DNA from: Zootoca vivipara
Taxonomy: Eukaryota
Length of the DNA: 64,000 bases
Assembly: GCF_963506605.1 (NCBI RefSeq)
Contig: NC_083276.1
Location: forward strand, 71,114,001 to 71,178,000
Direction of reading: 5' to 3'
In this document: one piece after another, positions 6,001-44,200 of the stretch
Layout: every line of letters begins with the position of its first letter
How positions within the stretch are numbered: the first letter of the stretch is position 1
Notes under the pieces: generated by a model
The model's database searches: none
The model's input: the letters and a program-made list of their open reading frames with translations, nothing else
Told to the model about the DNA's origin: nothing
Translations under genes and position numbers: made by a program

Positions 6001-7035
6001 TGTAACTTTATTGCATGAAATTAACACTCTGATACACCTTCGATTACCTATTTTCCATTTCATTCCACATACACTTGTAACTGCCCAACAGGCTGTCCAG
6101 CAAATGGAACAGAAGAAGTTACAGCAAGGACATCCTGCTTCGGGACCAGGTGGAGAACTGAAATTCCAGCCACGTATGTAAATTATTCTCTTTCTCTCTC
6201 ACACAGACATATTATTGATGATGGTGTTCATTATTTGTGAGAGAAACTATTCATGCCCACAGTGCAATACAGAACCAAACTTATAGCTTGGCACTTAATA
6301 TTCTGTTGCAAATAAGAGAAGGAGCCTGCCAACCCATTAGATTGGAATGTAACATGTTTGAACACTTGGATGCCTGAAACTGAACCCCTACTCATATACT
6401 TTCCTTGCCAGATAATTCAAATGAAAGAATCTATCATGTTTTACTGTTAAATCGGGGCACCTTTCATACAAGCTCCAAATATATCTCTTAGCAGCTGTAC
6501 ATGAAAGAGAGAGAGGTAATTTGGGCAAGTGTGTCTTTGTATGTGAGAGGGGGAAAAGATGCATTTTCATAAAAGAGAGCCAGCTGGATACCATTGAAAA
6601 TGGAGCTCTAAAATCTTACTGCACATAAATGAACAAGCAAATACCGCAGACCTTCTTTGTTCTCTGAAAGGTGATTTTATGCAGGGGGTGGGGTGAATCT
6701 AGTACCATAAATATGTGGAGTTCTGCTCCAATAACCTTTAGGGATGTTTTGACTATATGTGATTTCAGCTTTATGTATAACCCCCTGTAATGTAACCTGC
6801 ACGTAAAATTTGAGTCTACTATAATATGTAAAACCACACTTTCTGAGATTTGGATTACCAGGCAATTGCTCAACAGAACTAACCTTTGTTTTCCGTATTT
6901 TGTGTTACAGCTGCACCACAGCCAGTTGGAAATGTTCCAAATCATCCTGCGGGAGGCAGTCAGCCTTTACCACCAGGAAGCATACCAGTACAAGAAACAG
7001 CTGCAGGATCAGATCACGTTCAGTCTCACCCTTAA
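1..7035 (+). CDS. NUCB2: Nucleobindin-2 (nesfatin precursor), 3' part; join(1..91,2221..2279,2949..3041,3696..3785,5304..5474,6092..6173,6911..7035)
   Basis: Spliced translation [96 protein letters not shown]...ELKFQP matches nucleobindin-2. All introns are GT-AG and the frame is continuous; synteny with NCR3LG1/KCNJ11/ABCC8. Confidence 0.97.
1496..2172 (+). mobile_element. Solo LTR (677 bp) in a NUCB2 intron
   Basis: Termini TGTGA...TCACA; 5-bp direct repeat TGCTA at 1491-1495 and 2173-2177; internal AATAAA at 1805-1810. Confidence 0.8.
2221..2279 (+). CDS. NUCB2: NUCB2 exon, EF-hand 1 loop ([20 protein letters not shown])
   Basis: Acceptor ctttttatag| and donor |gtatgt; 59 nt restores phase 0. 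Confidence 0.95.
2949..3041 (+). CDS. NUCB2: NUCB2 exon, acidic region ([31 protein letters not shown])
   Basis: tgttttag| ... |gtgagg; 93 nt. Confidence 0.95.
3696..3785 (+). CDS. NUCB2: NUCB2 exon, EF-hand 2/GBA motif ([30 protein letters not shown])
   Basis: aaaag| ... |gtaatc; 90 nt. Confidence 0.95.
3836..4050. mobile_element. Palindromic hAT-type MITE (TIR TAGGGTTGCCAG-like)
   Basis: ~100-bp near-perfect inverted arms; 8-bp TSD TCCCTGAC at 3828-3835 and 4051-4058. Confidence 0.9.
5304..5474 (+). CDS. NUCB2: NUCB2 exon, leucine zipper/coiled coil ([17 protein letters not shown]...QRQELQQ)
   Basis: gttaag| ... |gtacca; 171 nt; within ORF 5142..5489. Confidence 0.93.
6092..6173 (+). CDS. 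NUCB2: NUCB2 exon ([27 protein letters not shown])
   Basis: caacag| ... |gtatgt; 82 nt. Confidence 0.93.
6911..7035 (+). CDS. NUCB2: NUCB2 terminal coding exon ([41 protein letters not shown])
   Basis: Strong acceptor ttttgtgttacag|; phase-1 continuation is open to TAA at 7033-7035. Confidence 0.8.
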
Positions 7036-9600
7036 CCACATGTGCCTCAAATTTGTACCATAGTTTTGGGAGAGAAGTGGGAGGGGATGTGGTCAGAGAA
7101 GTAAAAACAAATTGGGAATTGAGCTTAAAATCCCCATTTCAAATCATTGGATTCATGAAGACTTTCAAAGGCACAAATGATACAAGGCAGGTTTATAAAG
7201 CTGCTGATCTTTCAGGTGAGAAGGGTATATTAAAATATTCTAATTTTGTAACTAGATTTAAGGATATCCAGATTTTATCCTCAGGAAAACATTATTGTTT
7301 GACTTCAATGTAATTTGGCTGGCTGTCTATCATTTGAGCCTTGGAAAATCTCCACCTACTTCACGGTCAAATTAAATATGTTTTATAATCTGCCAGAAGA
7401 CTCACCAAATGTTCATTTGTAAATGTTCATGATGCTGATAGTTTTGATTGTCGTTGGGTGTAAAGTGGAAGTTTGCTTGATCAAGACACAAGTCTATGAC
7501 AATATTTTCCTAAAAGTGCCAACAATGGAGAGCAGGAATTTAGGATGGTGTAGTGAATGAGGGTGGTTTCCCCGCCCCCCAATCTCTTTGGTCTTTGAGA
7601 CCAAATGAATAGAAACCACCTGTGATCTGATTTCAATAAATTCTGCACATAAAAAAGGAAGTCTAATTGGAGCAGGGAGTAATGGGCAATAGTGAATATG
7701 CCTAAGAATGGCAGTATAAGAAGCCTTCAACAGAAATAGTGAATTTGAAGTGTATTGATTTAGCCGTCCTTATTGTTGCAAACCAAATGCAGTGTTTCAG
7801 CTGGCTACATCCCCCGTAAATCAGCTATGAAGAGGATACTTTCGTCCTACTTCCTTTCATAATATGCCAGTTGCATTTATCCCTTTATGAGCTATGAAAG
7901 TGAGCTCTTTTGATGATAAAGTATATTTGCAGAATTAGCAAAGACCTCTCATTGTCTTTTCTTGGACAAAACAGCTTGGCTCCTGATGTAAAAGACTCCT
8001 TTGAAAATCATCAGTATGTTACAAACAGCAGTTCTCAGAAGCTGCATTCTGAGTTTAAGCTAAAATCAATTAACACTGGGTATGATTACCTGAATTTTAA
8101 AAGGCACGCAGTTTAGATGTGGATATTTTCATGGAAGCTTGAAGCCGGCATCTTCAATAATAATTCAAGTTTCTCCACATAACCCTTTGTTTTTCTGTGA
8201 ACTTGGCTAAGAGCAACATGGCTTTAAGAGTTCTTTACCATTTTAGCTCAAAAACAAGCATCCAGTTCATTACAGCTGAAACCCAGTTTATCCTTTGAAC
8301 ATGACTCCTAAAGGCATTTTTTCTTACCGTATTATTCCTACTTGAATTTTTATTCAAAGACTACTGAAGCAAATGAAATGACAGTGGCATTTAGACTGTA
8401 TTTAAAAATGAGTAGGGGAGTATTTTTTTTTTCTGATGGTTGTACTGATGGGGCAGAATAGGAGGTGGCTATTAAAATATTGAAGAACTGTAATGATTTC
8501 TGTTTCTGGGAAATTGGCCGTTTTGCTATAACAGAATTATTTATATAGGGCTTCAAGATTTGCAGAGATAAAATAAAAGGCAGGCCTTCCCTATACAAAA
8601 GTTAGGGAAGGAGAATTCGGTGCACAGTTCGACACACTAATGTAGATTCTTGTCTTCAGTTGGAGTAGGTTACTTTTTTACAGGAGAGTTTTTAAATGAC
8701 AACTGCTGGCCCTTGAGCGACCTTGTTCACACTGTATATTACACATAATTGGTAGCATATTTTCCTGCTTGTTCATTTTAGGGCCTGTTTGCATAAGACC
8801 GTTAAGCATGTGGTGGATACTTGTGCAGGTTTTCTTCCTGCCCTTGATGAACCGGTAGTGTGTGACTCCTGTCATGCACCAAATTCTCCTTTAATAAAAC
8901 CATCAGAAACGTCATAATATGAGCACATCTCAAAACGGATAGCAAATACTCACAGGTGGCTTCTTGGAGTCAAAGAGGCCAGGTGGGCAGCCTTTCCATG
9001 GAACCAGCCCATGGCCAGAGTGGCCTATGAACCAGTCCTGTGCTTCCCTTTTTCAATTTCCATGATCTTAACTGAATTTTGCATTCTTGCTTCTTGGCAT
9101 CTCCTACTCCTGCTCGGTGTCAGCCACTCTTTCCTTTTTATGGTCCTGAAATGAATATGGCAATGTAGTTCTGACCTATAGGCTGAATTGCCTTCCTGTA
9201 GCCCTAGACTTCTTTTTCCACAGCCCATGATGACCAGTAGAAGAGCCAGCACAGGCAACTGCAACCATGCATAGGAACAGGATTATCGGACTGATACCCA
9301 TGACTTAATTTATATTAACCATACAGAAGTCCCTACATGAGAATTAAAAGAAGTTCCCAGAGGAAGGCTATTTCTCTACAGTTTACTTGAAACAGTACAT
9401 TAGACAGCTGCTTAAATACAGGTTGTGATCCTTGTTTGAGGCTCATGTACTACAACTGTTGGAAAGTTATCTTCTGTACAGTATTTTGTTTGCAGCCTCA
9501 CAAGTATATACAAACCAAAAAAGCATGCTGTCGTTAAATTTTATGTGGCATACATCCCTCTTTTAAGATTATAAATAAAATCATATGACAAAAATAAAAA
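7036..9600 (+). other. NUCB2: Probable NUCB2 3' UTR with candidate poly(A) signals
   Basis: AATAAA at ~7635, ~8572, ~8893, ~9574 and ~9593; true 3' end cannot be determined. Confidence 0.4.
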
Positions 9601-10620: not shown

Positions 10621-11422
10621 CAACAGATGCATAGGTACATATCTCTGTTATTTCCAGTGCAATACTGTATTTGTATGAAGAATGTTGTTTCACCCTTACT
10701 TTGTATACATTAGGTATAAATCAGATTAAATTGAGTTTATAGTCAGTTGCTTTGGGTCCTCTATGACCATCTTCTTCCAGTGATTGTTGTGGCTGAATTA
10801 TGTTTGGCAGAATTAAAAACAACAACAACACTAGATCATAAACAAGGATGCTTAACATTTAGTATTATATTTATTACATTTATTAGTTGGTTACTACAGA
10901 AAATGTGTTGAAGCAACAAACAACTGTAGAAAAACACAGAGATTATTTGTTGTCAATGTGAGACAATAAACCAGAAGCCTATGGGGGAAGTGAGACTTGG
11001 AGCATGAATTGATTACTCAGGGGGCTATGGGTTGAGATTTTATTTAAACTCAAGATTAGGCTTAAATTGAGCTGTCAACCATTAGTTAGATTTGCTGAGG
11101 TGCTGCGCCCGTTTGGTTTTCTGTTTACCTTCTATATTTCAACCCGGCTTACTCGCTCTCCTCAGCTGCCTGAGAAATGAGGATTTCTTTTGACGCTACG
11201 GATACAGGCTTCGAAAGTTTATTGCCTAGTACTCAGCTGCGTACAGGAGCTGTTTCTTGGTCGGAGTTTTTATTTATTTATTTATCCCAGTTTAACTACT
11301 CAAGCTGTTGAAGTTGACTTTTGACCATGCGAAGCTTCCGTGCGATTTTAAGTTTCGCGGTCGCCCCCTGTCCACTATCTGCGTCAGGTCCAAATACAAC
11401 CAAAGCTCACAATATCATAAGC

Positions 11423-11462
11423 GAAAGCGAAATCTTTCATAGGAGAAAGCCATTTCCAGGAA
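11423..11462 (+). promoter_or_regulatory. IRF-E/ISRE (GAAAGCGAAA) plus GAS (TTCCAGGAA) pair
   Basis: Exact matches to GAAANNGAAA (11423-11432) and TTCNNNGAA (11454-11462), 55-95 bp upstream of the ATG. Confidence 0.6.
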
Positions 11463-11515
11463 CCTGCCGAGTCCTTCGCGAGGAAGGAAAGGGCAGCGCC
11501 TCACCAGCGAGACCC

Positions 11516-11606
11516 ATGGATCGGGGAGGTGGGTTGGCGGCCCGCAGGTGCCTCCTGCTCGTCTTCTCGGTGTTCCTCCGTGGCGTCGTCATCCTCCAGC
11601 CGGCAG
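11516..11606 (+). CDS. NCR3LG1: NCR3LG1-like exon 1, signal peptide (MDRGGGLAARRCLLLVFSVFLRGVVILQPA)
   Basis: ATG in CpG island, basic n-region plus hydrophobic core, phase-1 donor G|GTAAAG. Confidence 0.8.
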
Positions 11607-14600: not shown

Positions 14601-17600
14601 CAGAGAGAAGGCAGTTAAAGAAAGGCTCTGTTGTGCTAGCTTCTCTGTACCTATCTGTACGATTTCTCTTTGCTAAAAGTGTTTTGTTTTGTTTTTTTAA
14701 AACCAACCCCTTAGTATCCTTCCACCACTCCTTTACTCAATCTTCTGCTTAAAAGCCACAGAATCTTTTGCAGTAAGTATAAGCACTTGGCATTTTCCTC
14801 AGAAACAGGCTGGTAACCAGTGAATATATTTTAATAACATATTCAAAATAACCAGTCACATTTATAGCCAGAGTCAGAAGGCTATATCCCAGCAGGCTGC
14901 ACAACCACTTGACAGAACATGTCTTTCTTCCCTTCACATCTGTGCTTGGCCTAAATTAGACAGACTGCAAGTTTGGAAAAAGTTTGCAACTTTATTCTGC
15001 TTGAGACAACTTAACTGTTTTACTAAAGCAAGTGTAACCAACATGATGCCTTGCAAATGTGGCTGGGAACCAGCTCCCATCAGCCCTAGCCAGCTATGCC
15101 AACAGCCATGGATGGTGGGAGACAAGCAACATCTGGAGGGCACCACGCTGTCTACTCTTGTGTTAAAGAATTCATTGAGTCACAAAATCCCCTCTAGCAA
15201 GGGGCATCTTGCTCACTCATGTTGTAAAAAGTTGCAGAGTAATAAACAGTGTAATGTTGTACACGCAGATCCTGCTATCCACCCACTTGTTATCCACCAG
15301 TTCACTTATCCAAACATAAAGAATTATGCCCAAACCTTGCTATACACTTTGCAGCTTCAGATATCTGAGCAACTGGAGCTTGCCCACTTCCTTACTTGTT
15401 GTGCTTTGCTGGTTGGCGGCAGCCATTTTTGAGCAGAAACCACGGTGAGAGAGAGAGATCAGACAAATCCCTTTTCCTTTTCCTCTTGCTGGTTGACTGC
15501 AACCATTTTGAGAAGAAACCATGGCAGGAGGGGGAGAGAGAGCACTGATTCCCATAGCAATTAATAGACAATGTTAGCCCAATACTTACTTAATGAACAA
15601 TTTCCAGGGAATGCATTGTGGGTGGATAGTGGGACCTGCATGTATAGGAAGATGAATGTGTAGATAAACCTGGTTTAAGAAAGATGATTAGGTACTTTCC
15701 AACTATCTGATTTCTGCATTCAGGGGTAGTCAGTGTGGTGCTCTCCAACTGTTTTGGATTATGACTCCCACCATCCCTGACTGCTGCCCATACTGGCTAG
15801 GGCCAGTGGGAGTTGCAGTCCACATCATCGGAGAACACCAGGTTGGCTACCACTGATTTATATTATATGGGAGGAACTCAACATTGCACCCTTCTGGTCA
15901 TTCAGCGCAAGCATTTCTGATTGCCAGGTAGTACAACCCCCCTCTCCTCCTCCACCTGTGCAGGGTTTTTTCCCAACCCTCCAGAGCAATCTCAGCTATA
16001 GCATCCATGACAGAAGGCCATCCAACCTCTGCTTAAAAACCCCCAAGGAAGGAGAGTGCACAACCTCCCTAGGGAGACCAGTCGTTCGTGACTGGTCTTA
16101 ACTGTCAGGGGTCTTTTACCTTTTTAGGCTAAGGCAATTTCTGTGTCAGTTTAGGAAAAAACCTCCTGTTTCGCTTATTTTTCAACTGATTGGACTTATT
16201 TTGGTATCAAAGTAAAGGTAATTGTGATCTCTTTCAAAATAAGGTATAAAATAAGGTATCAAAATGGTATTAAGTGCCACAGAAAAGGGCCACCGACCAT
16301 TCAATGGGAAACAAAAAGCTATTTTGTTTCCCATACATGTAATATGGGCAGTGATGAATCATAGCCTCCTGCTGTTAGAAAGGTCAAAAGACTATTTGCA
16401 ATAATGCTATTTTTTTCTTTATGAAGAATCTCTGAAAGTGACAATGGAAAGTCGGATGGTGGCGGTCTTGGATATAGATGTGATGATACCATGTGAGATC
16501 TCTGAATACAGTACTCCAGAGCTAAAGATCACAAACATTGCTGTTGAGTGGTATTGGAAGGCCTCTTCCAAGGAAGTGGAAAATATAGTATACACCATTG
16601 TTTCTGGAGTGCCTACATCTTATAGAAACGGTGCAAGAATGGATGAAAGTGAACTAAAAAAAGGCAATGCTGCACTTTTCCTCCCCCAAATACAGATTAG
16701 TGAAGAAGGAATATACAGATGTTCTGTGACTGTCACCCCAGTTTCAGATGAAGGAACCACTGTTCTAGAGTTAATTGGTAAGTATTTATGTTGTACAAGT
16801 TTGTAGAAAACTTACAGAGAACGAACTTGTACATTTCAGAATTTCCCGGTAGTTTTAAGGTCTAAGTAAGCATTATATAAGGAAATGTATGTGATATCAC
16901 CCATCATTAGAGAAAAGTCACTTTGCAAGACAGTAATTTAGAACAGAGAACTATGGGGGTGGGGTGCTTAGTCCTTTTCGCCAAGCACCAAAATACATTC
17001 CAAGCTGCTTCAGTCCCCCCCCCCCGTGGGAGATGCAGGTTCTAAATTGTAATAATCCTATGTATGTATACCAGTGAAATTTGTTCTGTATCCTTCAGTG
17101 TCAAAATGCTATGAATAAATAGCAACAAAAATAACAAAGCAGAGGAAGAAAAAAAAATACCTTCATATCAATGGTGGGGAAAAATAAACCAGCTGGTATT
17201 TTGAAGGACCTGGGAACATAAAATGCCCCTCCAGGTCCGCCATGTACTTTTCTGCTTTTTCCATCCAGTTGTGCAGAGTCGCTCGTAACTCTAGTTTTGC
17301 CCAGTTTTGGTATTCTCCTGGAGTCCTTTCTTCAACTCTTTCCCTCCACCATTATTTCCCCCCAAGTTCGTTCTTGTTCATTTCTATTACCACCAAGGCT
17401 CTTGACCAGCCTTCCCTCCTTCCCACCCATAGCTCATAGCTCCTCTTGACCCACAAAACACCTTCCTCAGGACTTCTCTTCTGTGCCTCTTGCCCCAACA
17501 TTCTCCTTCTACTTAAATAACCCTCACCCCAGGTTTTTAGTTTAGACCATGTCCTTCTGAGAAATCAGGAGTATCATCTATGACTTTCACTTCAACTTGT

Positions 17601-18067
17601 ATTGGATTTTAAGTGCTCTTTGTTGGTTTGGAAACCAGTTTTTGTCTGAAAAAACTGTATAAAAATGCAGCAAAACCAGGAAAGAAATTGACACTTTTTA
17701 TTATCTCCATGCAGCTCAGCCTTCTATAAAGCTGTCTCCCAGGACAGTTGAACTAGAAAATGGCAAGGAGAAGACCCTGTCATGTACAGTGAATAAATTC
17801 TATCCTCTTTCGATTGAGGTTCATTGGGAGAAAAAATCTGAACATGGCAATAATGAAGTTGTACCTGCAGATGATATTTGCACAGGGGTACCTGTGAAAA
17901 ATGGAGATGGCACTTTCAATGTAACCAGTAAACTGGGGCTACAACCATCTTTACAGGATAATGGAAATGTCTATAGTTGTGTTGTGGGACACAAATCATT
18001 TTCCATACGGCAGGCCTTCAATGCCACTTTGATAGTAACAGGTATTCCTTCTGTTGACCTTTTCTGC

Positions 18068-18099
<32 letters not shown>

Positions 18100-21000
18100 G
18101 TGGCATAGCTGCCAAGTTCTCCCTTTTTTTTTAAGGAAAATTCCCTTATGCTGAATAGGCTTCCTCGTGAGAAAAGGGAAAACTTGGCAGCTATGAATAG
18201 TGGGTCACATCCAACTGGTGTACTTCCATGAGTGTAGGGGCTTTTGATCCAGAAGGAGAGGGGATATTTGCCCACACACCCTGGAGCCTTCAGCAATTTC
18301 CACTAATTCTGCCCTATGTTCTGAAATGTTCTCCTTTCTCCAAAGATTCATATTGTACTTACAAATGCATTAGTCTTTGGGACTTCCATGCAGGGGCATC
18401 ACAAGGAAAGGGATAAAAAATATTGTAATGCCTTTATACAAATCTATGGGAATCTTGTGTACAGTTCTAGTCGCTGCATCTCAAAAAGATTATTGTGGAG
18501 CTGGGAAAGGTGCACGAAAAGGGCAACCAAAAATGATATTAGGGATGGAACAACTCCTTAATGAGAAAAGGTTATGGCACTTGGGGCTTTTTTTTAAAGG
18601 CAAATACGAGGAAGGGACATGTTAGAATTGTTTAAAATTATGTGTGATATGGATGGAAGTTGGTTCTCCATTAACACAATATGGGATCATCCAGTGAAGT
18701 TGACTGGTGAGAGGTTCAGGACAGACAGAAAGAAGTACTTTTTCATGCAACACATGCTTAAGTTACAAAATTTGCTGCCATGTAGTGGTCTGTTGATGGC
18801 CATTAGCTAAAATGGGTTTACAATAAAAAAATTCCTTCAGTAGCACCTTAAAGACCAACTAAGTTTATATTTTGGTATGAGCTTTTGTGTGCATACACAC
18901 TTCTTCAGATACAATGTGATTGGACACAATTGTGTACTATAAGCCCACCAATGGCTACCTCCAATATCAGAGGTGGCATGCCTCTGAACAGAACTTTCTG
19001 GCAAACGACAACGTGAGAGGTCTTTATGTCCGGTCTGGAAACCTTATAGTCATGCTAAATCAAATTAGTTTTTGGGCTGCTCCAGCAGGACTTTTCTTAT
19101 GTGCAGTTGGAATAAATGAGGCTAAAATGACTTTGCCACAATTGAGCAGCTGAATATGAAATATTACTTGTCATCAAAAGGTTGCAACAAGGCTGAAACA
19201 TTTTGCTATTTTGTGTGATAAGTAACAAGAACAATTTTTCTCTCTTTACAGAACCACCACCAAATTTTATCTGGTTGGCCGTGATACTTGTTTTATTATT
19301 ACTTGGTATGATTCCTGTAATTCTGTACATCAAGTACTTTAAGAAAAGTAAGTAATGGGAAGCATTTAATTAATTAATTTATTAATTTTTTAAAATTAAG
19401 ATAATTCTATACTATTCATCAAAGGTGGTTAAGGGTGGTTTACAAAAATAGATTAATATGAAACATAATACAGGCACGTATTCATTATTATTAAAGTAAA
19501 ATTAGTATTTTTGTGAAATCTTAATCTTTGGTAAACTTAGGTCTGAAATGACAGTATTCAAAAAGTCCTAGGCACCAGTACACCAGGCACAAAAAAATCT
19601 TGCTTGTGGTTAAGAATTTTGACTAAGTTTTCTTTTAAGTGGCTAAGATTTCTTTGCTGAATCAATTAGGGAAGGGCCATACCTCAGTGATAGAGCATCT
19701 GTTTTGCATGTAAGAGGTCCTAACTGGTTAGTTCTAGCTTCAGCACTATCTTGGAGATGGATGGCTATCAGTGACAGAGTGGTGGCCCCAGATTTATCTG
19801 CTCACTAGAAAAGACTCATGGAGTCTATACAACTGAAGCTACTATTTGACATTGCAAGTACTCAATTAGCAACCAATAACATCCACATAAAATAAGTCCT
19901 GGAAGAGACCTTGAAGGTCATTTAGTCCAAGCCCCTGTCACAGATAAAGCACCCTTTCTCAGCTCTTTTGCTTCATTCTACATGATACAGAAATAGCACA
20001 CTGTGCAAGATTCTTAATTCAGGACTACAAAGCTAACCAAAATCCTTGGGTGGGATATGTACAAAAGGAGTAAGAAGGAATGCTTAATCTGTGGCTACCC
20101 TGCACTGAGTGGGGAGTGGGGAGTTGGACTGGATGATTAAGGTGTTAAGGAATATAGCTAGTGTGTTAATTCCATTAGTGAGGAAAAAGCTGACTCACTC
20201 TGATTCATTTCCAAAATGCATCTGACTCAATTTTACTTCTTTATCAGTTTACTGGGCAGATTTGGTTGCCATGTGTCCTCTTATTCCAGGACACGTCCTC
20301 TTTTTCACGGGTAAAATTTCTGTCCAGGTGGATTTTTAAAATTTCCCCAAATGTCTCTGGCTATACTTTCTGGATGAGACATAGACTTGTTTTCCTCTTC
20401 TCTTCCCCTGTCCCCCTCAGCATTATATCACAGCATCTATATCCTACATATAGTAGAGGTATTTGAAATGAAAGTTGTCATAGTGTCCTCTTTGTTGCTC
20501 TTCAAAATATGGCTACCTTAGTAAGCATGTTACTCTGTGTATAAAATGGCTTGGATTAGACAGTATTGGTTGTGGGTTGGTGGCTGTTATCAGGAAGGAG
20601 TGAGTCATTGTGAAACACTTTGAGGAGAGCTCATCTGAAAAGAAGGCTTGGGGGATTGTCAGTCTTCAGGACTCTGGAGAACTCTAAGCTGTTGCAGGAC
20701 TCTCTGTAAATTGACTTAGAACTTGCATGTGGATTTTGCTCAGCAAGGATTTTGAATTACACAAACCCCTCTGGGACCAAAGATAGAAAAGCCTTTGTGT
20801 AACCTGTATATAGTGTGTAAATATAGAGTGTGTATTTTGTGTGTGTCAGGTAAAACAACTGCTTAAACAAGAACTGTTTTGGGTTGGTGAGCTAAGCAAC
20901 TTTACTGAAGCTTCCAGGGCACACACACAGAGAGCAAGATATATAGATTGAAGATAGCACCCCCTATACGGTTCTTTTAAACTCTTATTATTCTGTGGGA

Positions 21001-24000
21001 AAGGTACACATAGCCAGTACACTTCCATCCGTTATGTGTTAATGGGTACTCATAACATATCATGGTGGCTTCTGCTTAAGCCGGAACTAATCACAACATA
21101 GGATATCTACTCATATCCATCCATATTGTCTAAATAACACCTCTGTTGAGGGTGTGACCTTTAACAGCTGCAAAAACCAGCATTTTGGAGCTTGAGAGAA
21201 CATGAAACTTAATACAATACATTAAGTTGTTTTTGTTCACTGAACTGTCACTATTTAATGTCTTATTGCCACAGAGGAATTATGGAAGGAATGATCTTCC
21301 AAATCAGAAAGATTCTTTTTGCAAATTCATTTGCTGCAAAAATCTTTTTAAAATCCCTGCTCCTACCTTCTGGCTTTCTATCATATCACCCCCAACACTT
21401 GAAAGCTAAACAGTCTTTGTTAAACTGGCTTCTTAAGTATGGCTGTTGCTATACTCAACTGAACCTCAAACAAACTCTTCCTAGTCTCATGGAGGCTTCA
21501 TCCAGGACTGTCTTTTTCTTCCAGTTATGCTTTACCTGATCTGCACTGCAAGCAGTCTAGATAGGGATTGTGCCACTTGATCTTTGATACAGCATCTTGC
21601 ATACATTGTTCTTCACCACGTAGCAGTCACTGGCATTTGCAATAGACTGAATGTGATAATTACAAAAAGGAAAAATTCAGTCATACCTCAGTTTAAGTAT
21701 GCTTCGGTTTGAGTACTTTCAGTTGAAGTACTCCGCGGACCCGTCTGGAACGGATTACTCCACTTTCCATTACTTTCAATGGGAAAGTTCGCTTCAGGTT
21801 AAGTACGCTTCAGGTTAAGTACAGACTTCCTGAACCAATTGTGTACTTAAACCGAGGTACCACTGTAATGCTTTGTTGTAAACTGCAGTAAGAATGTTCC
21901 TCTTACAGATGACTTGTTATAATAGTGTCAGTTGAAACACTGCTACAAGTTTCTACACCTGAAGTTCTTCTTGAAACACTCATTTGTGAGTGTTTTTGTT
22001 TTTTGTTTTGTTCTTTATAGTTCAACCAGGGAAATTTTCAGCAATTAAAAATAAAGAATTGAAACATTTGGAAGAAACACTGGTGGTGTTCTTGCTGCAA
22101 GGCTTTCGTCCAAAGCGTTTAGAAATAGTTTTTTTCTTAAAACTCCCAAGCTGGAATGAAAAACAGGAAATATACTCTTGGAATACTATGACAGCCAGCA
22201 ATCCTGAACACGGAGAAGATACACCTCTTATCATCACTGGAAAAGGAGAAGAAAGTTCTGATCTTGTCATGAAGTTGAAGACCATGTTTACTTTTGATCC
22301 AACTTTGCAAGTAAAACAAAGGCGCACTTTTGACGTTTCCTGCAGTGTCAACATAGTTCCAGATGTAAAGCTGCTGAAGGAGTTTGAACTTACACTTGAA
22401 GTTAGACACGAGGCCTTCCCAGATTGTTTGTCTACTGAAACAATATCATTTAAAGTCATAGGTAAGTAGGAAATATGGGCTGAAATGATCACTTAGAATA
22501 ATACTATTTCACTGGCTATTATAAGAATTCTGTCAACAGATGAAAGGTGAGAGAGCTGCATGAATGCAATGGGATACTTTCTGCTGCCATAGCCAATGAT
22601 GATACATAAAGGGAAACAATGCAGGATTGTAGCTAAACTCTTTGATCAGTCTACAAAAAGTGAATGATAAGATGGGAAAGCAGCATAGGTGGCTTGTGTG
22701 GAGATTATTTCTCTTAAACACGTTCAGTTTGACTAGTTCCTTATAACTTGTGAGCTCATACAAAGGGCGAAGTGATGACCTTTAAAGCATTTCATGGTAT
22801 AAGGCCTGCATGGGATTCAGATCAGAAATTCATATGTGGACAAAAGAAAGTCCATACTTATTATCTTCTCCTGTTGCATTCTACTTACTAATAATATCAC
22901 TTTTTTGGTATTTATTTATTTACAGAATGTACTCCCAAAGTCTCCAAATTTGAATGTGAGCCTCCTGTACCAGAGTGTGGGAAAATCATCACATTATCTT
23001 GTTTAGTAGAAGATTTCTGCCCACGGGAGTGTGGCATTTGTTGGCTAAGAGGCAATAATGAGCCTTTGGATGCTACAAGTAACACAGAGAAGCCACAGCT
23101 GGACCCAGTGTCAAATCTGTATTGCAAGAAAAGCAGAGTATCCTTTATACCTCAACCAGAAGACCACGCGGTAGATTTTATTGTTCAAATCAACCATTGT
23201 CAAAAAGTTATAAGACATAGTTACCCACTCCTGTTAAAAGGTGAGTACTTGGCAAGTTCTTCTGCAATGAACAACTACTTGTGCTTCCTGTCTAAATAGT
23301 TTATATAAAACTGGAGATACACAATTGAGTTGTTTCCTGTATCTGTATTTGTTGTGGGTCTTTGATCACTTGTAGTGAAAGAGATCACTTTTATCTCTTT
23401 GTCATTAGGTGATGCTATCGTGGGTTTGTCCCATGGAAAACATGACTCAGAGAGCCCTTGCACAGAAGTGTCAAGTCCTTCATAAAATTAGAGTTTAGAA
23501 CCTTTTCTGGGTGAAATCAGCAATGCATGTTCATAGCTGATATATGCATCTTCTCAGGAAAATTATAGTGTCAGCTAGTGGCAAATTGCAAACATGACAA
23601 GCATTATGGTGAAGCCAATTTAAAACATGAATCAAATGAGAAATTGGAGCTCTCATCTGTTTCAATCCAGAAGGTCAAAGATGGCACACTTTGTATTCCA
23701 ACCAGGATAAAACAGCCACGTGTAATCATATACATTTAATAACAAATAATATATATATTATATTATATATAATTATATATTATATATGGGTGTCAGATAT
23801 ATTAGAATATGTTACAGACTGCCAATGCTCTCCTGCCATTATATGCATACTGTTATCATTTCTTCATATACCATATCGTGCGGATTTGAACTAGTTAAAT
23901 CTGCAAAGCTTTTAATTTGTAATTTTTGTGAATTGCTGCGATTTCACAAAAGATCTGACTCCCAGAGTTCATTGGGAGAAGCCATAACATCTAAACTAGG

Positions 24001-27000
24001 CAAATCTGGTAGTTTTGACAAGACTGTGGTGTTAATTGCTCATTCTATCCTATAATTTCCACAAGGATTGTAGTGAAACTGAAAGGATAAGCAACTGAAA
24101 CTGAAACTGAAAGCAAACCTATCTCTAGCTCTTTTTTGAGAGAGCCTGTGTGTATATATCCATGTGTGTATCCACTGAGAAAAGGAGTTCATGCATCATA
24201 TGACATAGGCTGTAGTCCATGAAAATTTATGCCATGATGCATGTGTTATAAAGTGGCACTAGGTTTGGTTTTGCTTTAACATACTAATGTGACACCCCAT
24301 CTGCAATTTGTCACTTCTGATTTACTGCTTTACAATACCGGATGTACTAGCATTCTTTGAATTTAAACTAATGTTTTCAATTCATTTTGTTTTATCTGCA
24401 TCTGCATTTTTTAGGTTACCCCAAAGTTACAGATATTACATGTGAACCAAATGATCCTAAATATGGAACTAAATTGTCTCTAACCTGTAAAGTCACAGAT
24501 TTCTTTCTTAGTGACATAAAAATTAAATGGCTTGATGGGGGTATTGAAATAAGTGAAGGTGTGGACACAGAGAAGCCAGTCGAAGGCTCAAATGGCTGTT
24601 TGAAGTTGTCTTCTAAGCTCCAGCTGATACCAACTGCTTTGGATCATAATAAGTTCATTACTTTCAGTGTGACATATGGTGACCTGAAAAAGCCCATTGT
24701 TAGAGATGTGTATCTAAAGCTCCCAGGTATGTACTGAGAATCCTTTGGGTTCTTTCAACTTTTGGCAAATGGCAATTTGAGCTTGTTTATTTAACAAAAT
24801 TTAAACCACTTAATTTTAAAAATGTCGGTAAGTGATTGTAAAAATGTCTAAGTGGTTTACATAAAATAAAATGTATATTAAATTGAGGATAAATGTAGTA
24901 TTCTGATATGAATCGGTTCCCTTTGCAACAAGGGAGGTTTGACATATTTGTGTACTCTGATAGGTGTATGTCTCTACTAGCAGTCATGTGTCCCTAATAT
25001 CTGCCAGTTTTGTTTGTTTTTTTGAAAGTCCAAACTATCTTGCAGACTTGCACTTAGTAGTTCTGAAGATTACCTGATAGAAAAATCAGGTAAATCTAAT
25101 AAAAAACTAAGAAAGCAAAAACATATGTTCACACGTACACTGATGGTACTACTTCACTCCAAGTTTTTTTGAAAATCAAAAATCATATTATCGGATGTAT
25201 ATTCATTGAAGATGAATATCCTGGCAACCCTGCTGATCTGAAGTGTGATTTAAACAATGGCACATTTAAATGAACTTGTCTTTCATAAAATTCCTTTATT
25301 TTTTTAGAATAAAGTTATAGAATAGGCTCACATTGGGGAAGGGGAGTAGAACATCCAGGTTTAGTCCCTAGCATTTCCAGCCAGGGCTGGAAATATCCCC
25401 TGCTTGAAACTGTACAGAGCTACTGCCAGACACTCTAAACAATACTGAACTAGATGGATTAATGGACTGACTTGGTATTAGGCATATTTTTATGTTCCTG
25501 TTGTCTTGTATTGTTACTTCAAGTCACATCCTTTCCTTCCCATGTAGTTCACCGCCCTGAGATGTCTGAAATAAAGAAAACACCAATGCAAAACAGTGAG
25601 AGCATCTCTTTGGAAACTGTCATATCAAATTTTGCACCTTGCAACATAAGAGTGACGTGGTATGAAGAATGGGAAAAAATATCTGAAGACAATCCCAGGA
25701 ACATTCAGATTGGAGAAAACAAGTTAGGTTATTTTGTAAGCAAATTACAGGTTAGTCCAAAAGGCAGAGACTCCAAAGAGACAATTAGATGTGAAGTTTT
25801 TCACCAAGCGACACAGGATTTTAAAGAAAAAAGCTTTGTGTGGGAAAGCAAAGGTAAGAACATTTTTTTTTAATCTTTTCAGCGCAGAATGTACAGAATT
25901 TATGTAAGGGATTCAGACATCTCCCTTCAAAAAACACTGCTAATGGGGGAAAAGGTGATTCCTCTTCTCAATTAGCATTTCCATTACTTAGGACTCAGCT
26001 ACATTAGTACCGTAAAAAACACACCAGTTTTTTAAATCCATTATAAAGATGCAACACCAGGTGGCACTGTAGAGCACAAAACCTTTTTCCTTTTGTTTTT
26101 TCTTTTGTTATAACAATATAATTTATAATTTAATTATAGCATTCCCCCCCCTCGGTCACGGCTGAAAGGTGGATTTGTAGTCTTTTTGGGTAGCTATGAT
26201 ATTTCTGGTGACATGTGATAGAATTCCCCAATCATTGGGAAGAGGGGTATTTAACTTAAATTTTATTTTAAGTCTTTGAACACTGGAGTGACTCAAAGAG
26301 TAGAAGCACTTATGACTCAAAGAGCAGGAACACTTACAGCTGCTTTTTCAAAGTGTTCTCCAGTTTCTCCTCACCCTAGTGCATTGTGTTGCAATGCATT
26401 GGTTCTTTTCCCACCGAAATTACACACCACCTGAGATAGTAGTTTGAGATTTTTTTCTCCAGCTCTCAGTAAGTGCCTTACTGAGCTAGTGCTAAATTAA
26501 CTTTGCTTGCCAATATGGACCATTGAATTGTAACAGACCTCAGGTGTACTTGGGGGCTGAATCAGCACAGCCCATGGTCTGTACAACAATGTAGGTTCTG
26601 CTTTATTGCTGGCCAGGATGTTTTGTGATTAGTCAGGTCAGTACTTTTGGTGATTCCGAGGCCTGTGGGCATCTAGCTCCCACATATGTTTGGCTTTTGC
26701 TGGGGCTAAGCTGTCTATATTGATATGCATGGAGAAAAGGGAGCCTTTGTAAATTGATAGTGCTGTTAGGGGGTGAGATTGTAGAATGAATCAGCATGAA
26801 AACATCCTGAACTATACCTGTTTCCTTCCAGTGTAAGTAATAGTGTTGTGATGAATGTCAGCTGTAATTTTATTTGTGGTAGATGCTTTTAAATGATAAA
26901 ACTGGGAAAAATGAAGACAGTGATATAGGCTTTCAGTTTGTTTTCATTGTAGCAGGTCATCTAGAAATTCAGCAGTGCTCTTTGAGGATGGCTCATGATT

Positions 27001-28959
27001 TTCTCATATTCAATAATAGTATTCAGAAGACTAGCATATCTGGTTGTTATGAATACAAAAATCAACATAATGCTCTTACAACACACCTGGTGTTAGAAAT
27101 TTTGTCTTGAATTCATCAGAGGAGAACTAGCTTTTGAATTTTTCCATGAATATTGCTCTGACTGTATCCCCCCCCCCCCGCAACCTCCCAAATGCTACCC
27201 TTGGAAGACAGTTGGCTAATTGCAGTTGAGAGCATGTTGATTCAGTTGAGTAGCATTTCTGTTGTAAGTATTTCTGTTACGTGACATGATGCCTGCCCAA
27301 GGCCTAATATGTTATTTCTTCTTTTAAAGAAGATTGCTGCGATAGCCTTGACAGAATGTTGACTTCACCAGTGAGCCAAAACCATGTAGGACCATTAATA
27401 AGTGAGTATTGCACCTCCACATGTAGGTAAAATGCAGGTACATTACACATTGACCCAGTGATTTCATATCCTGGTTTGTAGTCCCAGTTAAAATCAGAAA
27501 ACTGTTTAGATGTTTCTTGAAAGAGGCAGTGGGAGAACGTTATAAACCATTATTTATTAAAGTGAGATCATTACATCTCAACCAGACCATTAAGTTACTC
27601 TAAACCTTATTTTCATAAGGATGATTTGAAAGATCATCTTAGTCCATTCTGAAAAACTTGTACGCAGGGATCTGCAAACTTTCTTTTGGCATAAAAGCCA
27701 GCCACTATTTGTGGCCACAGTGACCACTTCAGCCCTCCACAAGGAAACAGGAAAGGGTGCAGAAGAATTCCTCATGTCATGCTTATATTTATGCCATCCC
27801 TCTACTGTTTAATGTATGACAATATAATTATATACCACTGGATAGTTTTAAACAATCATAAAATAATAAAACAATAACAGGTTTAACAAAACAACTATGT
27901 GAAACATTAGTTTTAAAGCAAGTAGTCTATGAATTTATATGCCAACATTAATATCTTAATAACTGAGTCTCTAACAACCGATAAAACATACTGAAGACAT
28001 ATGAAAGACATTCATATATGCTTAACTGAACACATGAAAGTCCATCCCGACAAAACTACAGATTGGGGCTTGAAGATAAAATTGTAACCTTGTATTTATT
28101 TAGGGACCTGGCACATCCCAAATAGTAAGAGTTTTAATATCCTGACTTGGCATAACTGCCCTCTTTCCAGCTATCCTTTTACGGTACCTAGGTGTTTATT
28201 TTCTCCATCTCATTTGCCCTCACTCTCCTGTCCTGGTTCAGTTCTTCATCTTCCATCCTCAACAGATTCTCAACAGCTGTCACTTACTTTGACTCCTGCC
28301 AGCAATCCATTACACTCCACTGCTGTCAGTCAGTCATTCATTCTTACAATACGGACCACTCTAGTTCTCCAGTGGCTTGCTATTGCTTTTTATTCCTCTG
28401 TCCTTAATTGCCAATGTCTTTGACTGTAGCTTCCATTCACAGCACCAAGCAGCGGCTGGGTAGGGAACAGACATAATGCAATGTGAACAGAAAGTTCAAA
28501 TTATCTGACTTGAAGAAAATATGCAAATGATTGGAAACTGAACATCACAATCACAGACAGTTAATGTTAGCGAGATGCCTCTTCCAGGTATGTACTTCAA
28601 GAGCAGTTTCCTATTCGGTTTCCCATTCCCTCTCTCTAGATTCTAAGCTCACCAGTGAAGAACCAGTTCAGCCTATGAAGATAGAATGTGTCACCAGCAA
28701 CCCAAAGGCAGGCGAGAAGGTGACTCTTCGCTGTTTTGTACCTGGAATAAGAGCAGAGGATGCCAATGTTTCCTGGTTTAAAGGAGTATATCCAGTTGAT
28801 GATAAAATAGAGAATGCAAACTGTGGCGATGGATCTGGTTTTATTTCAGATGTGGTCATTACAACTGAAAAAGATAAGAAAAAATATGAAATCAGATGTG
28901 AAGTTTATGTAGATGCCAATTATGAAATCTTGGAAGAAAACTTTTATTTAGAACTTTGA
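11516..28959 (+). CDS. NCR3LG1: B7-H6 (NCR3LG1)-like type I membrane protein of ~876 aa: SP-IgV-IgC1-TM followed by five C1-like Ig domains; join(11516..11606,16427..16777,17715..18041,19252..19347,22021..22461,22926..23240,24415..24726,25548..25853,27330..27401,28640..28959)
   Basis: All internal exons are phase 1-1 with GT-AG ends; the total of 2631 nt is one open frame. The IgV resembles B7-H6 (LKV.M...W.WK...G.A.L.LP.IQ..E.G.YRC.V.VTP). It sits at the NCR3LG1 position between NUCB2 and KCNJ11. Confidence 0.82.
11654..11700 (+). repeat. (GCT)n followed by (AAACT)n microsatellite
   Basis: Directly visible. Confidence 0.9.
12242..12377. mobile_element. Palindromic hAT (Charlie-like) MITE
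   Basis: TIR CAGGCATCCCCAAACT..; 8-bp TSD GTCTGGAT on both sides; near-identical copy at 38831. Confidence 0.88.
12410..13275 (-). mobile_element. Degraded LINE (L2/CR1 clade) 3' fragment
   Basis: Minus-strand pieces such as LKEWVCSLEVLLDSLLSPEAQV and VPHLWNALP resemble an L2/CR1 RT C-terminus; AT-rich tail near 12410. Confidence 0.55.
13355..13604. mobile_element. hAT-Charlie-like non-autonomous DNA transposon
   Basis: CAGGGGTAGGCAACC...GGTTGCTGAGCCCTG; TSD CTATTGAC/CTGTTGAC; related copy at 44550. Confidence 0.8.
15721..15856. mobile_element. Older diverged copy of the palindromic hAT MITE family (also ~15030-15160, ~39010-39150, ~63660-63785)
   Basis: CAGGGGTAG...GACTCCCA...TGGGAGTTGCAGTCC...CTACCACTG. 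Confidence 0.55.
16427..16777 (+). CDS. NCR3LG1: NCR3LG1-like exon 2, IgV domain
   Basis: Canonical C (IPC), W (VEW) and EEGIYRC; FG-loop VTVTP as in B7-H6; atgaag| ... G|gtaagt. Confidence 0.92.
17715..18041 (+). CDS. NCR3LG1: NCR3LG1-like exon 3, IgC1 domain
   Basis: TLSCTVNKFYP..IEVHW...NGDGTFNVTSKL...YSCVVGH, a canonical C1-set; sequons NVT and NAT; atgcag| ... G|gtattc. Confidence 0.92.
18069..18095 (+). repeat. (TG)n microsatellite
   Basis: Directly visible just downstream of the exon 3 donor. Confidence 0.9.
18104..18195. mobile_element. ~90-bp hAT-type mini-MITE (TIR CATAGCTGCCAAG)
   Basis: 8-bp TSD AATAGTGG; three more copies in the window. Confidence 0.9.
18395..18810 (+). mobile_element. 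CR1 LINE 3' fragment
   Basis: Frameshifted IVMPLYKSM..CVQF..LKKD..ELGKV.KRATKMI.GMEQL, typical of the CR1 ORF2 C-terminus. Confidence 0.65.
18822..18911. mobile_element. Penelope-like element terminal fragment
   Basis: AATAAAAAAATTCCTTCAGTAGCACCTTAAAGACCAACTAAG...CACTTCTTCAGATA; near-identical to 54510-54599. Confidence 0.6.
19252..19347 (+). CDS. NCR3LG1: NCR3LG1-like exon 4, transmembrane segment (EPPPNFIWLAVILVLLLLGMIPVILYIKYFKK)
   Basis: tctctttacag| ... A|gtaagt; 96 nt, phase 1-1; ~22 uncharged hydrophobic residues followed by KYFKK. Confidence 0.88.
20528..21057 (+). mobile_element. Possible old solo LTR
   Basis: TGTTA...TAACA termini and LTR-like composition, but no clean TSD. Confidence 0.3.
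21678..21865. mobile_element. Tc1/mariner (Tigger/pogo-like) MITE
   Basis: CAGTCATACCTC...GAGGTACCACTG followed by TA; relatives at 46469 and 52310. Confidence 0.7.
22021..22461 (+). CDS. NCR3LG1: Exon 5, degenerate C1-like Ig domain with an insertion (post-TM domain 1)
   Basis: Long polypyrimidine tract and ttatag|; 441 nt open; GFRPKRLEIVF and LEVRHEAFP resemble the C1 motifs GFYP..I.V.W and C.V.H..L; G|gtaagt. Confidence 0.8.
22926..23240 (+). CDS. NCR3LG1: Exon 6, Cys-rich C1-like Ig domain (post-TM domain 2)
   Basis: tttacag| ECTPKVSKFECEPPVPECGKIITLSCLVEDFCPRECGICW...DFIVQINH...LLLK G|gtgagt; 315 nt. Confidence 0.82.
24415..24726 (+). CDS. NCR3LG1: Exon 7, C1-like Ig domain (post-TM domain 3)
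   Basis: ttttttag| GYPKVTDITCEP...LSLTCKVTDFF..DIKIKW...LSSKLQLIP...YLKLP G|gtatgt; 312 nt. Confidence 0.85.
25548..25853 (+). CDS. NCR3LG1: Exon 8, C1-like Ig domain (post-TM domain 4)
   Basis: catgtag| ...ISNFAPCNIRVTW...FVSKLQVSP...IRCEVFH... G|gtaaga; 306 nt. Confidence 0.83.
27330..27401 (+). CDS. NCR3LG1: Candidate exon 9, short linker (EDCCDSLDRMLTSPVSQNHVGPLI)
   Basis: Polypyrimidine tract and NAGNAG acceptor (taaag|aag|), donor A|gtgagt; 72 nt, phase 1-1, no stop. Confidence 0.55.
28640..28959 (+). CDS. NCR3LG1: Exon 10, terminal Ig-like domain (post-TM domain 5) and stop
   Basis: tctctctag| ...GEKVTLRCFV..ANVSWFKG...YEIRCEV...NFYLEL TGA. Confidence 0.82.
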
Positions 28960-42427: not shown

Positions 42428-43639
42428 TCAGGATGGTTCATCGGATATGCAAAACATGGGCTTTAACCTGACAGACCTTTTCCTAATAGTGCCCCTAGGT
42501 GAAAAGGAGATGCTGTCCAGGATGCTCTGGTTTTCCTCCAGTTGCCTGGCAGTGCAGCTTGGGGTGGGCACCTTCACAGTGTTGCCAAACTTGGAGTAAT
42601 CTACGGAGTACTGCCCATCCTCTTCGGCCACTATAGGCACAAACCTTTGTCCCCAGAGGATCTCGTCGGCCAAGTAAGACGTCCTGGCTTGAGTGGTGAT
42701 GCCCGTAGTTTCCACCACCCCTTCTAGGATGACAATGACTTCCAGATCCTCGTGGTGGTGGAGGTTGTCCGGGGCCACGTCGTAGAGGGGGCTGTTCCTG
42801 TCTATCACGTGGCAGATGATAAGCGGGGAGACCAGGAAAATGCTGTTTCCCCCTACCGGGTTCTCCATGTGGATGTCGATCTGGTTGAGGGGCACCACCT
42901 CCCCCTCGGGGCTGGTCGTCTTCCTCACCACCTGCATGCGGATGGTGGCGCTGATGATCATGCTCTTGCGCAGATCGCCCACGCGCAGCATGAAGCAGAG
43001 CTTCCCCTCGCGGAGCGCGATCACGGCGTGCTTGCTGAAGATGAGCGTCTCGGCTCGCCGGTGCGCCTGGGCCGTCTTCATGAAGATGCAGCCCAGCATG
43101 ATGGCGTTGATCAGCAGGCCCACGATGTTCTGCACGATGAGGATGAGGATGGCGGAGGGGCACTCCTCGGTCATCATGCGCCCGCCGAAGCCGATGGTCA
43201 CCTGCACCTCGATGGAGAAGAGGAAAGCCGACGTGAAGGAGCGGATGTCGGTCACGCAGGGCACGAAGTCCACCCCACCGCCCAGCTCCCCCGCGTCGCC
43301 GCCGCCCTGCCGGTGGAGCTGCTGGGTGCTCTGATCGAGGTCCCCGTGGGCGAAGGCTATGAGCCACCAGACCATGGCGAAGAGCAGCCAGCTGCACAGG
43401 AAGGTCATGGTGAAGATGATGAGCGTGTGGAGCCACTTGAGGTCCACCAGGGTGGTGAAGACGTCCTGCAGGAAGCGGCCCTGCTCGCGGATGTTCTTGT
43501 GAGCCACATTGCACGTGCCGTTCTTGCCCACGAAGCGGGCCCTCCTCTCCCGGGCGTGGTAGCGGGACGGATCCGGGACATCCTCGGCCAGCCGGGTCAG
43601 CACATACTCCTCCGGGATGATGCCCTTCCTGGACAGCAT
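42428..43639 (-). CDS. KCNJ11: ATP-sensitive inward rectifier K+ channel Kir6.2, intronless, 403 aa
   Basis: Starts [20 protein letters not shown] in the Kozak context GCCAGCCATG; TIGFG filter; C-terminal RKR ER-retention motif; lies just downstream of ABCC8. Confidence 0.98.
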
Positions 43640-44200
43640 GGCTGGCCTGCGCTCTTCTCCTCCTACAGCCCCCTGCTGCCCGTGGCCGCTGCGGCGGCGG
43701 CGGGGACGGTGTCGGAGGGAGCCATCGCTGCTGCTGTTGCTGCTGGTGCGCCTCCTTCGCCGCCCCTCCGACTGCCCTGGCCGACTCCCCTTCCCCGCCC
43801 CCCTTCCCCGATGCGCCCCCTCAGCTGCGCACGCCAATCACAGCCCTCTCCGGCTTTTGCAAAGGCGGCGGCTTTCCGCGGCTCTCTCTCGCAGCCAACC
43901 AGCCCGCGGCAGGACATCACCCGGCAAGCCAGGCACCATCTCCCAAAGCCGGGATCGCCTGCCTTGAGCTGCCGGCTCTGGAGAAGCCGGCGGCAGCGGG
44001 GGAGGAGCGTTCAGAGGCAAATCCGCTGGCGGCGCCGCCGCTCGGGCCCTGACTCTCCGGAACGCTCGCCAGGCGACAGCAGGGGACGCTGTCGCGCAAG
44101 GGAGTCCCATTATGGTGGCAGGGCCGCGCAGTCACGAGAATGGCCCAAAGAAGGAGCCGGGCGCACAAAAGGGATCGTAGGCTCACGGGGTTGCAAGGGA
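42750..44200 (-). promoter_or_regulatory. CpG island over the KCNJ11 promoter, 5' UTR and most of the CDS
   Basis: Very high GC and CpG; GC-box-like and CCAAT-like elements at ~43790-43840. Confidence 0.8.

Follow-up and report, generated by a model that had tools for sequence, protein, structure and literature searches.

INTRODUCTION

C1-set immunoglobulin (Ig) domains are a hallmark of antibodies, T-cell receptors and major histocompatibility complex (MHC) molecules, and are regarded as extracellular units stabilised by a disulfide; to our knowledge, all described members of the set (Ig constant domains, MHC, beta-2-microglobulin, tapasin, SIRP) are extracellular or luminal and disulfide-bonded. 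The present study concerns the B7-H6 gene (NCR3LG1) of the lizard Zootoca vivipara, on the plus strand of a 64 000-nucleotide stretch of contig NC_083276.1 (RefSeq assembly GCF_963506605.1, positions 71 114 001 to 71 178 000), called the window below and used for all coordinates. Behind its transmembrane (TM) segment the encoded protein continues into five Ig domains, D1 to D5. Unlike the known C1-set members, to which they are related, these domains follow a membrane anchor; four of them (D1 to D4) are devoid of the canonical Cys pair, and D1 also lacks the Trp and contains a long insert.

The closest described system is human B7-H6, a ligand of NKp30 which, like the lizard protein, has a type I layout of leader, V, C1 and TM, encoded with phase-1 introns and flanked by nucleobindin and KCNJ11 genes. 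The two proteins differ behind the membrane: the human tail is homologous to Gag and contains ITIM (immunoreceptor tyrosine-based inhibitory motif), SH2 and SH3 motifs, according to passages of PMC2715080, whereas the lizard tail is made of five C1-like domains with an acidic dileucine loop. A second point of comparison is provided by the I-set arrays of titin and obscurin, which are also tandem cytosolic Ig domains with partial and variable core cysteines; for titin, an excerpt of PMC5766482 gives a retention of 43% for CysB, 42% for CysF and 30% for CysG. In contrast to these arrays, the lizard tail is C1-derived, belongs to a surface ligand and has no conserved G-strand Cys triad. Loss of the bond is also known outside the cell, since CD2 has an extracellular Ig domain without the disulfide between strands B and F (passage of PMC12051499). 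The last relevant system is HIV-1 Nef, together with host cargo: a [DE]xxxL[LI] signal, of the type bound by the clathrin adaptor protein (AP) complex AP-2, is presented by Nef from a flexible loop inside a folded domain close to the membrane (excerpt of PMC3901399), as is predicted for the motif in D1. There is no sequence relationship between the two, and AP binding is demonstrated for Nef but only predicted for D1.

The explanation we favour, with a probability of about 0.6, is that the tail is a cytosolic C1-derived array which folds without the B-F disulfide and sorts B7-H6 through an AP-recruiting dileucine loop. The five in-frame domains after the anchor would most likely lie in the cytosol, and the chain is read as intracellular because the pattern of disulfide-pair loss is largely shared with sharks and because the dileucine motif is conserved. 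The acidic dileucine loop of D1 would then be expected to recruit AP clathrin adaptors and to send B7-H6 into an endosomal or lysosomal route, so that the amount of surface B7-H6, the presumed NKp30 ligand, could be kept low until regulated; the distal domains would probably act as a rigid, beads-on-a-string scaffold. An array conserved since before the divergence of sharks would provide C1 folds that naturally do without the disulfide, of interest for Ig folding and for the design of intracellular antibodies, the D1 dileucine would offer a testable two-residue handle on the control of surface B7-H6 in non-mammals, and the array would bear on the question of what gave way to the Gag-like tail in humans. 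The B7-H6 orthologue is known; the dileucine motif in the D1 loop is new here. Our literature search found no title or abstract describing a cytosolic C1-derived array, but it did not cover the main papers on B7-H6 evolution and a prior mention is quite possible; passages of PMC11599192, PMC10751288, PMC6795676 and PMC12227049 contain no mention of it.

RESULTS AND DISCUSSION

Five C1-derived domains in frame with the membrane anchor

The gene comprises nine exons (leader, V, C1, TM and D1 to D5) sharing one frame, which is open over 852 residues, and all introns are GT-AG and of phase 1. The TM exon (19252..19347, hydropathy 3.05), which ends in the basic residues KYFKK, is followed by D1 (22021..22461), D2 (22926..23240), D3 (24415..24726), D4 (25548..25853) and D5 (28640..28959, with the stop codon at its end). 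In terms of an ancestral tail of seven domains, T1 to T7, which is discussed further below, they correspond to T1, T4, T5, T6 and T7, respectively. The Pfam C1-set profile is matched above its cutoff by D2 (24.6 bits), D3 (45.5 bits) and D4 (31.5 bits); D5 falls 0.1 bit short (20.9 versus 21) and D1, an Ig fold with an insert, gives no match. A titin-type I-set class was considered for the tail and rejected because the I-set is not the top profile: its scores, 12-13 bits, are under the cutoff and under those of the C1-set. Judged by these profiles and by the Cys pair, which is absent from D1 to D4 and present in D5, the tail domains are C1-derived and not canonical C1-set.

Structure prediction gave an Ig beta-sandwich with high pLDDT (predicted local distance difference test) for all five tail domains of the Lacerta orthologue. 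D1 of the window, modelled alone, is also a predicted beta-sandwich with a long insert (pLDDT 82.5). Its model resembles MHC class II beta chains, beta-2-microglobulin and other Ig domains, with Z scores up to 10.9 (root-mean-square deviation, rmsd, of 2.5 over 110 aligned residues) and a tie between V- and C-type structures; a search of the ESM Atlas with D1 returned unrelated microbial clusters at a best score of 0.80 and was uninformative. A homodimer prediction for tail residues 290-745 of the Lacerta orthologue, in which the alignment was unused, scored 0.00 and carries no weight either way.

An acidic dileucine motif in the D1 loop

The insert of D1 contains the acidic dileucine motif EDTPLI (22215..22232, D1 residues 65-70), a predicted AP-adaptor sorting signal located in a loop of low confidence (pLDDT below 50 at residues 61-65 and 67-74). 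Its conservation was assessed in 50 species of jawed vertebrates, each represented by one protein; the species counts below refer to this set. The length of the T1 insert ranges between 27 and 65 residues, and its sequence shows little conservation otherwise. The strict form [DE]xxxL[LI] is found in the T1 loop of 32 species, against 2.9 expected from shuffles within the loop, and a looser form, L[LIMV], in 40, against 4.7, counts which do not amount to a P value because it was the motif that had drawn attention to the loop and the species are related. Elsewhere the strict motif stays under expectation (6 versus 13.1 in the ectodomain, 21 versus 41.5 in the rest of the tail). The motif in the T1 loop occurs in chimaera, basking shark, bichir, coelacanth, frogs and reptiles. 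This loop points to endocytic or lysosomal sorting as its probable role, and AP binding with internalisation through it would be rather likely if the tail is indeed cytosolic. That human cytomegalovirus can direct human B7-H6 to lysosomal degradation (passage of PMC5561058) shows only that trafficking can be a control point for this protein.

Several observations weigh against this explanation. The strict motif is missing in 18 species, including the salamanders Ambystoma and Pleurodeles, sturgeon, Stegostoma and Elgaria, and among five extra proteins beyond the 50 species it is present in three, Hemitrygon having none; the choice of the loop after the fact has to be counted here as well. Two of the ancestral tail domains, T2 and T3, have both Cys and the Trp in all species examined (27/27 and 47/47), as would be expected of extracellular domains. 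RefSeq includes isoform models devoid of a TM segment, in Varanus (X2, P0036) and Lepidochelys (X6, P0042), and leaderless isoform models also occur in the databases. Finally, five of the six tail-exon variants listed in the reads change a residue, a small number drawn from at least six variants.

One alternative is that the cytosolic array is above all a scaffold, for reverse signalling upon NKp30 binding or for a structural link to the cytoskeleton, while the dileucine binds a partner other than AP or packs on the domain. The five to eight conserved domains go far beyond what a sorting signal needs, the human tail, although unrelated, has proposed signalling motifs (passages of PMC2715080), and the absence of the dileucine in some species fits this possibility. 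On the other hand, the lizard tail contains just one ITIM-like match, on a predicted strand, and the exact acidic-x-x-x-L-L spacing is kept in a loop of variable length and otherwise little conservation. We consider this alternative unlikely as the main role, but it does not exclude sorting, and both could operate.

Topology of the tail

The tail domains very probably lie in the cytosol, as judged from the predicted single-pass layout of type I; the introns flanking the Ig exons are of phase 1. Beyond the leader, the window protein and nearly all scanned homologs have one TM segment, the exceptions being a few isoform or partial models with none and one fused model with two; net charge is more positive behind the TM segment than before it in 48 of the 50 species. 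A contig of run X1 (record 4) joins TM, D1 and D2 without gaps (19262-19347, 22021-22459 and 22924-23242), and the joint between C1 and TM is covered by two raw RNA reads of run X14 and by contigs of X1 and X3. X14 consists of raw RNA reads; X1 and X3 were taken as RNA by guess, the X1 contig being intron-free. Junctions were examined in the reads as far as D2, and most intron bins are empty of reads, repeats aside. No joint skipping the TM exon was found among 15 of the 29 joints.

The scarcity of glycosylation sequons had been put forward in the initial annotation as a sign of cytosolic location. The counts were right, with a single sequon in the tail (NVS, in D5) as compared with two in C1 (NVT and NAT), but within the window sequence the deficit is not significant (1 observed, 3.1 expected from shuffles, P(≤1) = 0.16), and the NVS of D5 is absent from Podarcis and Rhineura. 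The contrast emerges at the level of the family. Over the 50 species, ectodomain sequons are in excess (148 observed versus 102.7 expected, a ratio of 1.44), with sites common to 37, 29 and 18 species, the first two being the NVT and NAT sites of C1, while the tail is at chance (185 versus 194.8, ratio 0.95), its best site being shared by 8/50 or 7/26 species. Tail sequons thus appear to be selected neither for nor against, as expected if they were never used.

These data bear on another possibility, that the tail domains are extracellular, by way of secreted isoforms lacking the TM exon or of leaderless, inverted ones, and that they lost the disulfide in the manner of CD2. Since all exons are of phase 1, exon skipping would preserve the frame; the TM-less and leaderless models mentioned above, the intact Cys pairs of T2 and T3 and the precedent of CD2 speak in its favour. 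We nevertheless regard it as improbable, because reads and contigs show the C1-TM and TM-D1 joins with no skipping among 15 of the 29 joints, because tail sequons are at chance, and because Cys numbers range from 1 to 8 per tail domain across the family, variably, when V has mostly 2. The dileucine in the tail loop also counts against it, as we know of no extracellular role for such a motif.

Cysteines of the tail

According to the initial annotation, the post-TM domains had lost the canonical B-F pair in different ways. The residue assignments proved correct once the positions had been anchored on a family alignment of 96 sequences including the ectodomain C1 (residues were read out in all but five of these, P0022, P0041, P0042, P0051 and P0064). 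In D1 the B and F positions are occupied by Phe (22089-91) and Leu (22395-97), and a further Phe takes the place of the C-strand Trp. They are Cys (23000-02) and Val (23183-85) in D2, Cys (24486-88) and Phe (24663-65) in D3, and Thr (25616-18) and Cys (25790-92) in D4; D5 (28732-34 and 28897-99), V and C1 have Cys at both.

Comparison across species revealed a position-specific and non-random pattern. Both canonical cysteines are present in V in 49/50 and in C1 in 50/50 species; in the tail the corresponding figures are 0/50 for T1, 0/50 for T4, 24/50 for T5, 0/48 for T6 and 23/36 for T7. T4 has kept the B cysteine in 50/50 and the F cysteine in 0/50 species, and the reverse holds for T6, with the F cysteine in 48/48 and the B cysteine in 0/48. 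Squamates and elasmobranchs each include species with Cys and species with Phe at the F position of T5, and the F position of T7 is variable. Losses at D1-F, D2-F and D4-B are common to the lizard and to sharks, and are therefore older than the shark split.

It had been argued from these losses that the domains have long been cytosolic. The conclusion holds and extends further back in time than was implied, but the argument from Cys is weaker than stated: loss is not universal in the tail, since T2 and T3 retain both residues, the F position flips in T5 and varies in T7, and the extracellular domain of CD2 is without the bond. The comparison that was drawn with titin-type intracellular domains is apt as regards partial retention of core cysteines, less so in that titin domains often keep the B or F residue. 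Conversely, the partnerless cysteines of T4 and T6 are invariant, which suggests that Cys conservation in the tail needs no partner and that full retention in T2 and T3 does not prove a bond. Overall, the losses support a cytosolic location without amounting to proof; the single TM segment with its basic C-terminal flank, the TM-D1 splice, the family sequon contrast and the dileucine motif are the stronger evidence, and they support it.

Two features had been overlooked. One is that the tail as a whole is rich in Cys, with 1207 of 35 671 residues (3.4%) family-wide compared with 271 of 11 483 (2.4%) in the ectodomain, D2 of the window alone containing nine. The other is a conserved E-strand Cys in D1 (22341-43; 39/50 species for T1). 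Could it replace the missing partner? Cys is present at both the B and E positions in 30 species, at a single one in 9 and 9, and at neither in 2, and about 30 with both are expected under independence. A substitute B-E disulfide in D1 was thus rejected, as the two residues are lost independently.

It may also be asked whether the tail cysteines form a switch that responds to redox state, lipids or metals, a role put forward for the cryptic cysteines of titin. Besides this precedent, the excess of Cys and the conservation of non-canonical residues (the A strand of T7 in 38/38 and of T4 in 44/50 species, the E strand of T1) could be cited in its favour. We think the chances of this are slim, given that the T1 B and E cysteines do not co-vary and that one Cys of D1 is polymorphic in the reads (Cys/Arg). 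As the lone B or F cysteines are invariant and the remaining positions flip freely, we infer that the remaining tail cysteines are ordinary buried core residues.

Age and constraint

A search with an amphisbaenian tail retrieved at least 99 proteins, from sharks, sawfish, sturgeon, bichir, coelacanth, amphibians, turtles, crocodilians and squamates. When 115 domains from 16 species were placed in a quick tree (120 columns), tail domains clustered by position, and each clade included cartilaginous fish, either sharks or chimaera (SH-aLRT support 94-99). According to this tree and the alignment, all seven classes are ancient and shared with sharks, as are the losses at D1-F, D2-F and D4-B. None of the amniotes on the tree has T2, and lacertids also lack T3. 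Tblastn searches of the window with three relatives for remnants of T2 or T3 exons gave cross-matches to other exons and weak matches (E > 0.1); the intron between D1 and D2 (22462-22925) is just 464 nucleotides long, and tblastn showed no trace in it of the T3 exon that Rhineura and geckos have. No bird, placental or teleost name appeared among the at least 99 proteins or among 7 tail matches, in searches limited by word and length that do not establish absence. The tail domains are 85-96% identical to those of Lacerta (V 86%, C1 96%) and 17-35% identical to those of shark (V 39%, C1 43%).

That the tail exons are decaying leftovers, with Cys lost by drift, is scarcely tenable: two domains are lost in lacertids, the mammalian tail is shortened or replaced and several variants change residues, but the frame is open, splice sites are canonical (AG/GT, phase 1) and spliced contigs exist, in agreement with the earlier view that intact frames and splice sites speak against pseudogenisation, and the domains fall into orthologous classes extending to sharks, the lacertid tail being conserved like the ectodomain.

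A broader form of the cytosolic sorting explanation would be that the array is ancestral to jawed vertebrates and undescribed in print, with seven cytosolic domains, dependence on the disulfide shed before sharks and bony vertebrates diverged, and a Nef-like loop holding the NK-cell ligand away from the surface; the marsupial tail would then be a remnant, and the human gene would have a Gag-derived tail in its stead. We advance this more tentatively, and it may well prove too bold. The RefSeq model of NCR3LG1 in the marsupial Dromiciops (P0127) retains T1, with ExxxLM in its loop, and T3, and the tail thus survived into at least one mammalian lineage.

Related proteins show variations on the same layout. 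In chimaera and sharks, B7-H6-like paralogues (P0120, P0121 and P0128) have tails made only of tandem T1-like repeats, seven stretches in P0121. Xenopus tropicalis P0114 reads V-C1-TM-T1-T1 and then a tachylectin-family region (PF14517), possibly from a fused gene model; a further stretch presumably resembles an aerolysin-type domain. Alligator P0115/P0116 is a more distant V-C1-TM protein with several Ig-like domains behind the TM segment, some of them without Cys, and is possibly a second family with this layout.

Gene identity, remaining exons and neighbouring sequences

The gene is the lizard NCR3LG1/B7-H6, already annotated as a known orthologue: D1 is 100% identical to the RefSeq NCR3LG1 protein of Z. 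vivipara (P0001). For the Lacerta orthologue, the top sequence match in the PDB is human B7-H6 (E = 1e-36), and the model superposes on B7-H6 structures with an rmsd of about 2; homology of the ectodomain V and C-type Ig domains to human B7-H6 is supported by Pfam, PDB sequence and structure comparisons. The leader exon (11516..11606) has an ATG, a hydrophobic stretch and a phase-1 GT donor, and its Met is also where the Lacerta, Podarcis and Rhineura models begin. The V-set exon (16427..16777; Pfam V-set 28.3 bits, cutoff 26) has both canonical Cys and the Trp, and the C1-set exon (17715..18041; Pfam C1-set 59.5 bits) both Cys as well as its two sequons. Between D4 and D5, RefSeq models include a 69-nucleotide linker exon (27333..27401), in frame and with AG/GT borders.

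The RefSeq Zootoca model has 63 additional residues before the Met at which the models of related lizards begin (11318-11515). An upstream frame near the nucleobindin gene (6825-7310) encodes the start of a leaderless RefSeq isoform, P0012, and other RefSeq isoforms begin within V or at C1. The neighbours of the gene are a nucleobindin-like exon (E = 0.001) and KCNJ11 (E = 1.8e-199), the latter an intronless, GC-rich open frame for Kir6.2 on the minus strand (42431-43837). Outside the gene, the closest matches to D2 in the same genome are three tandem C1 exons with 39% identity (one at L002:1390-1770 on the minus strand, two on C13); the exon that was read among these matches retains both Cys, has sequons and looks SIRP-like.

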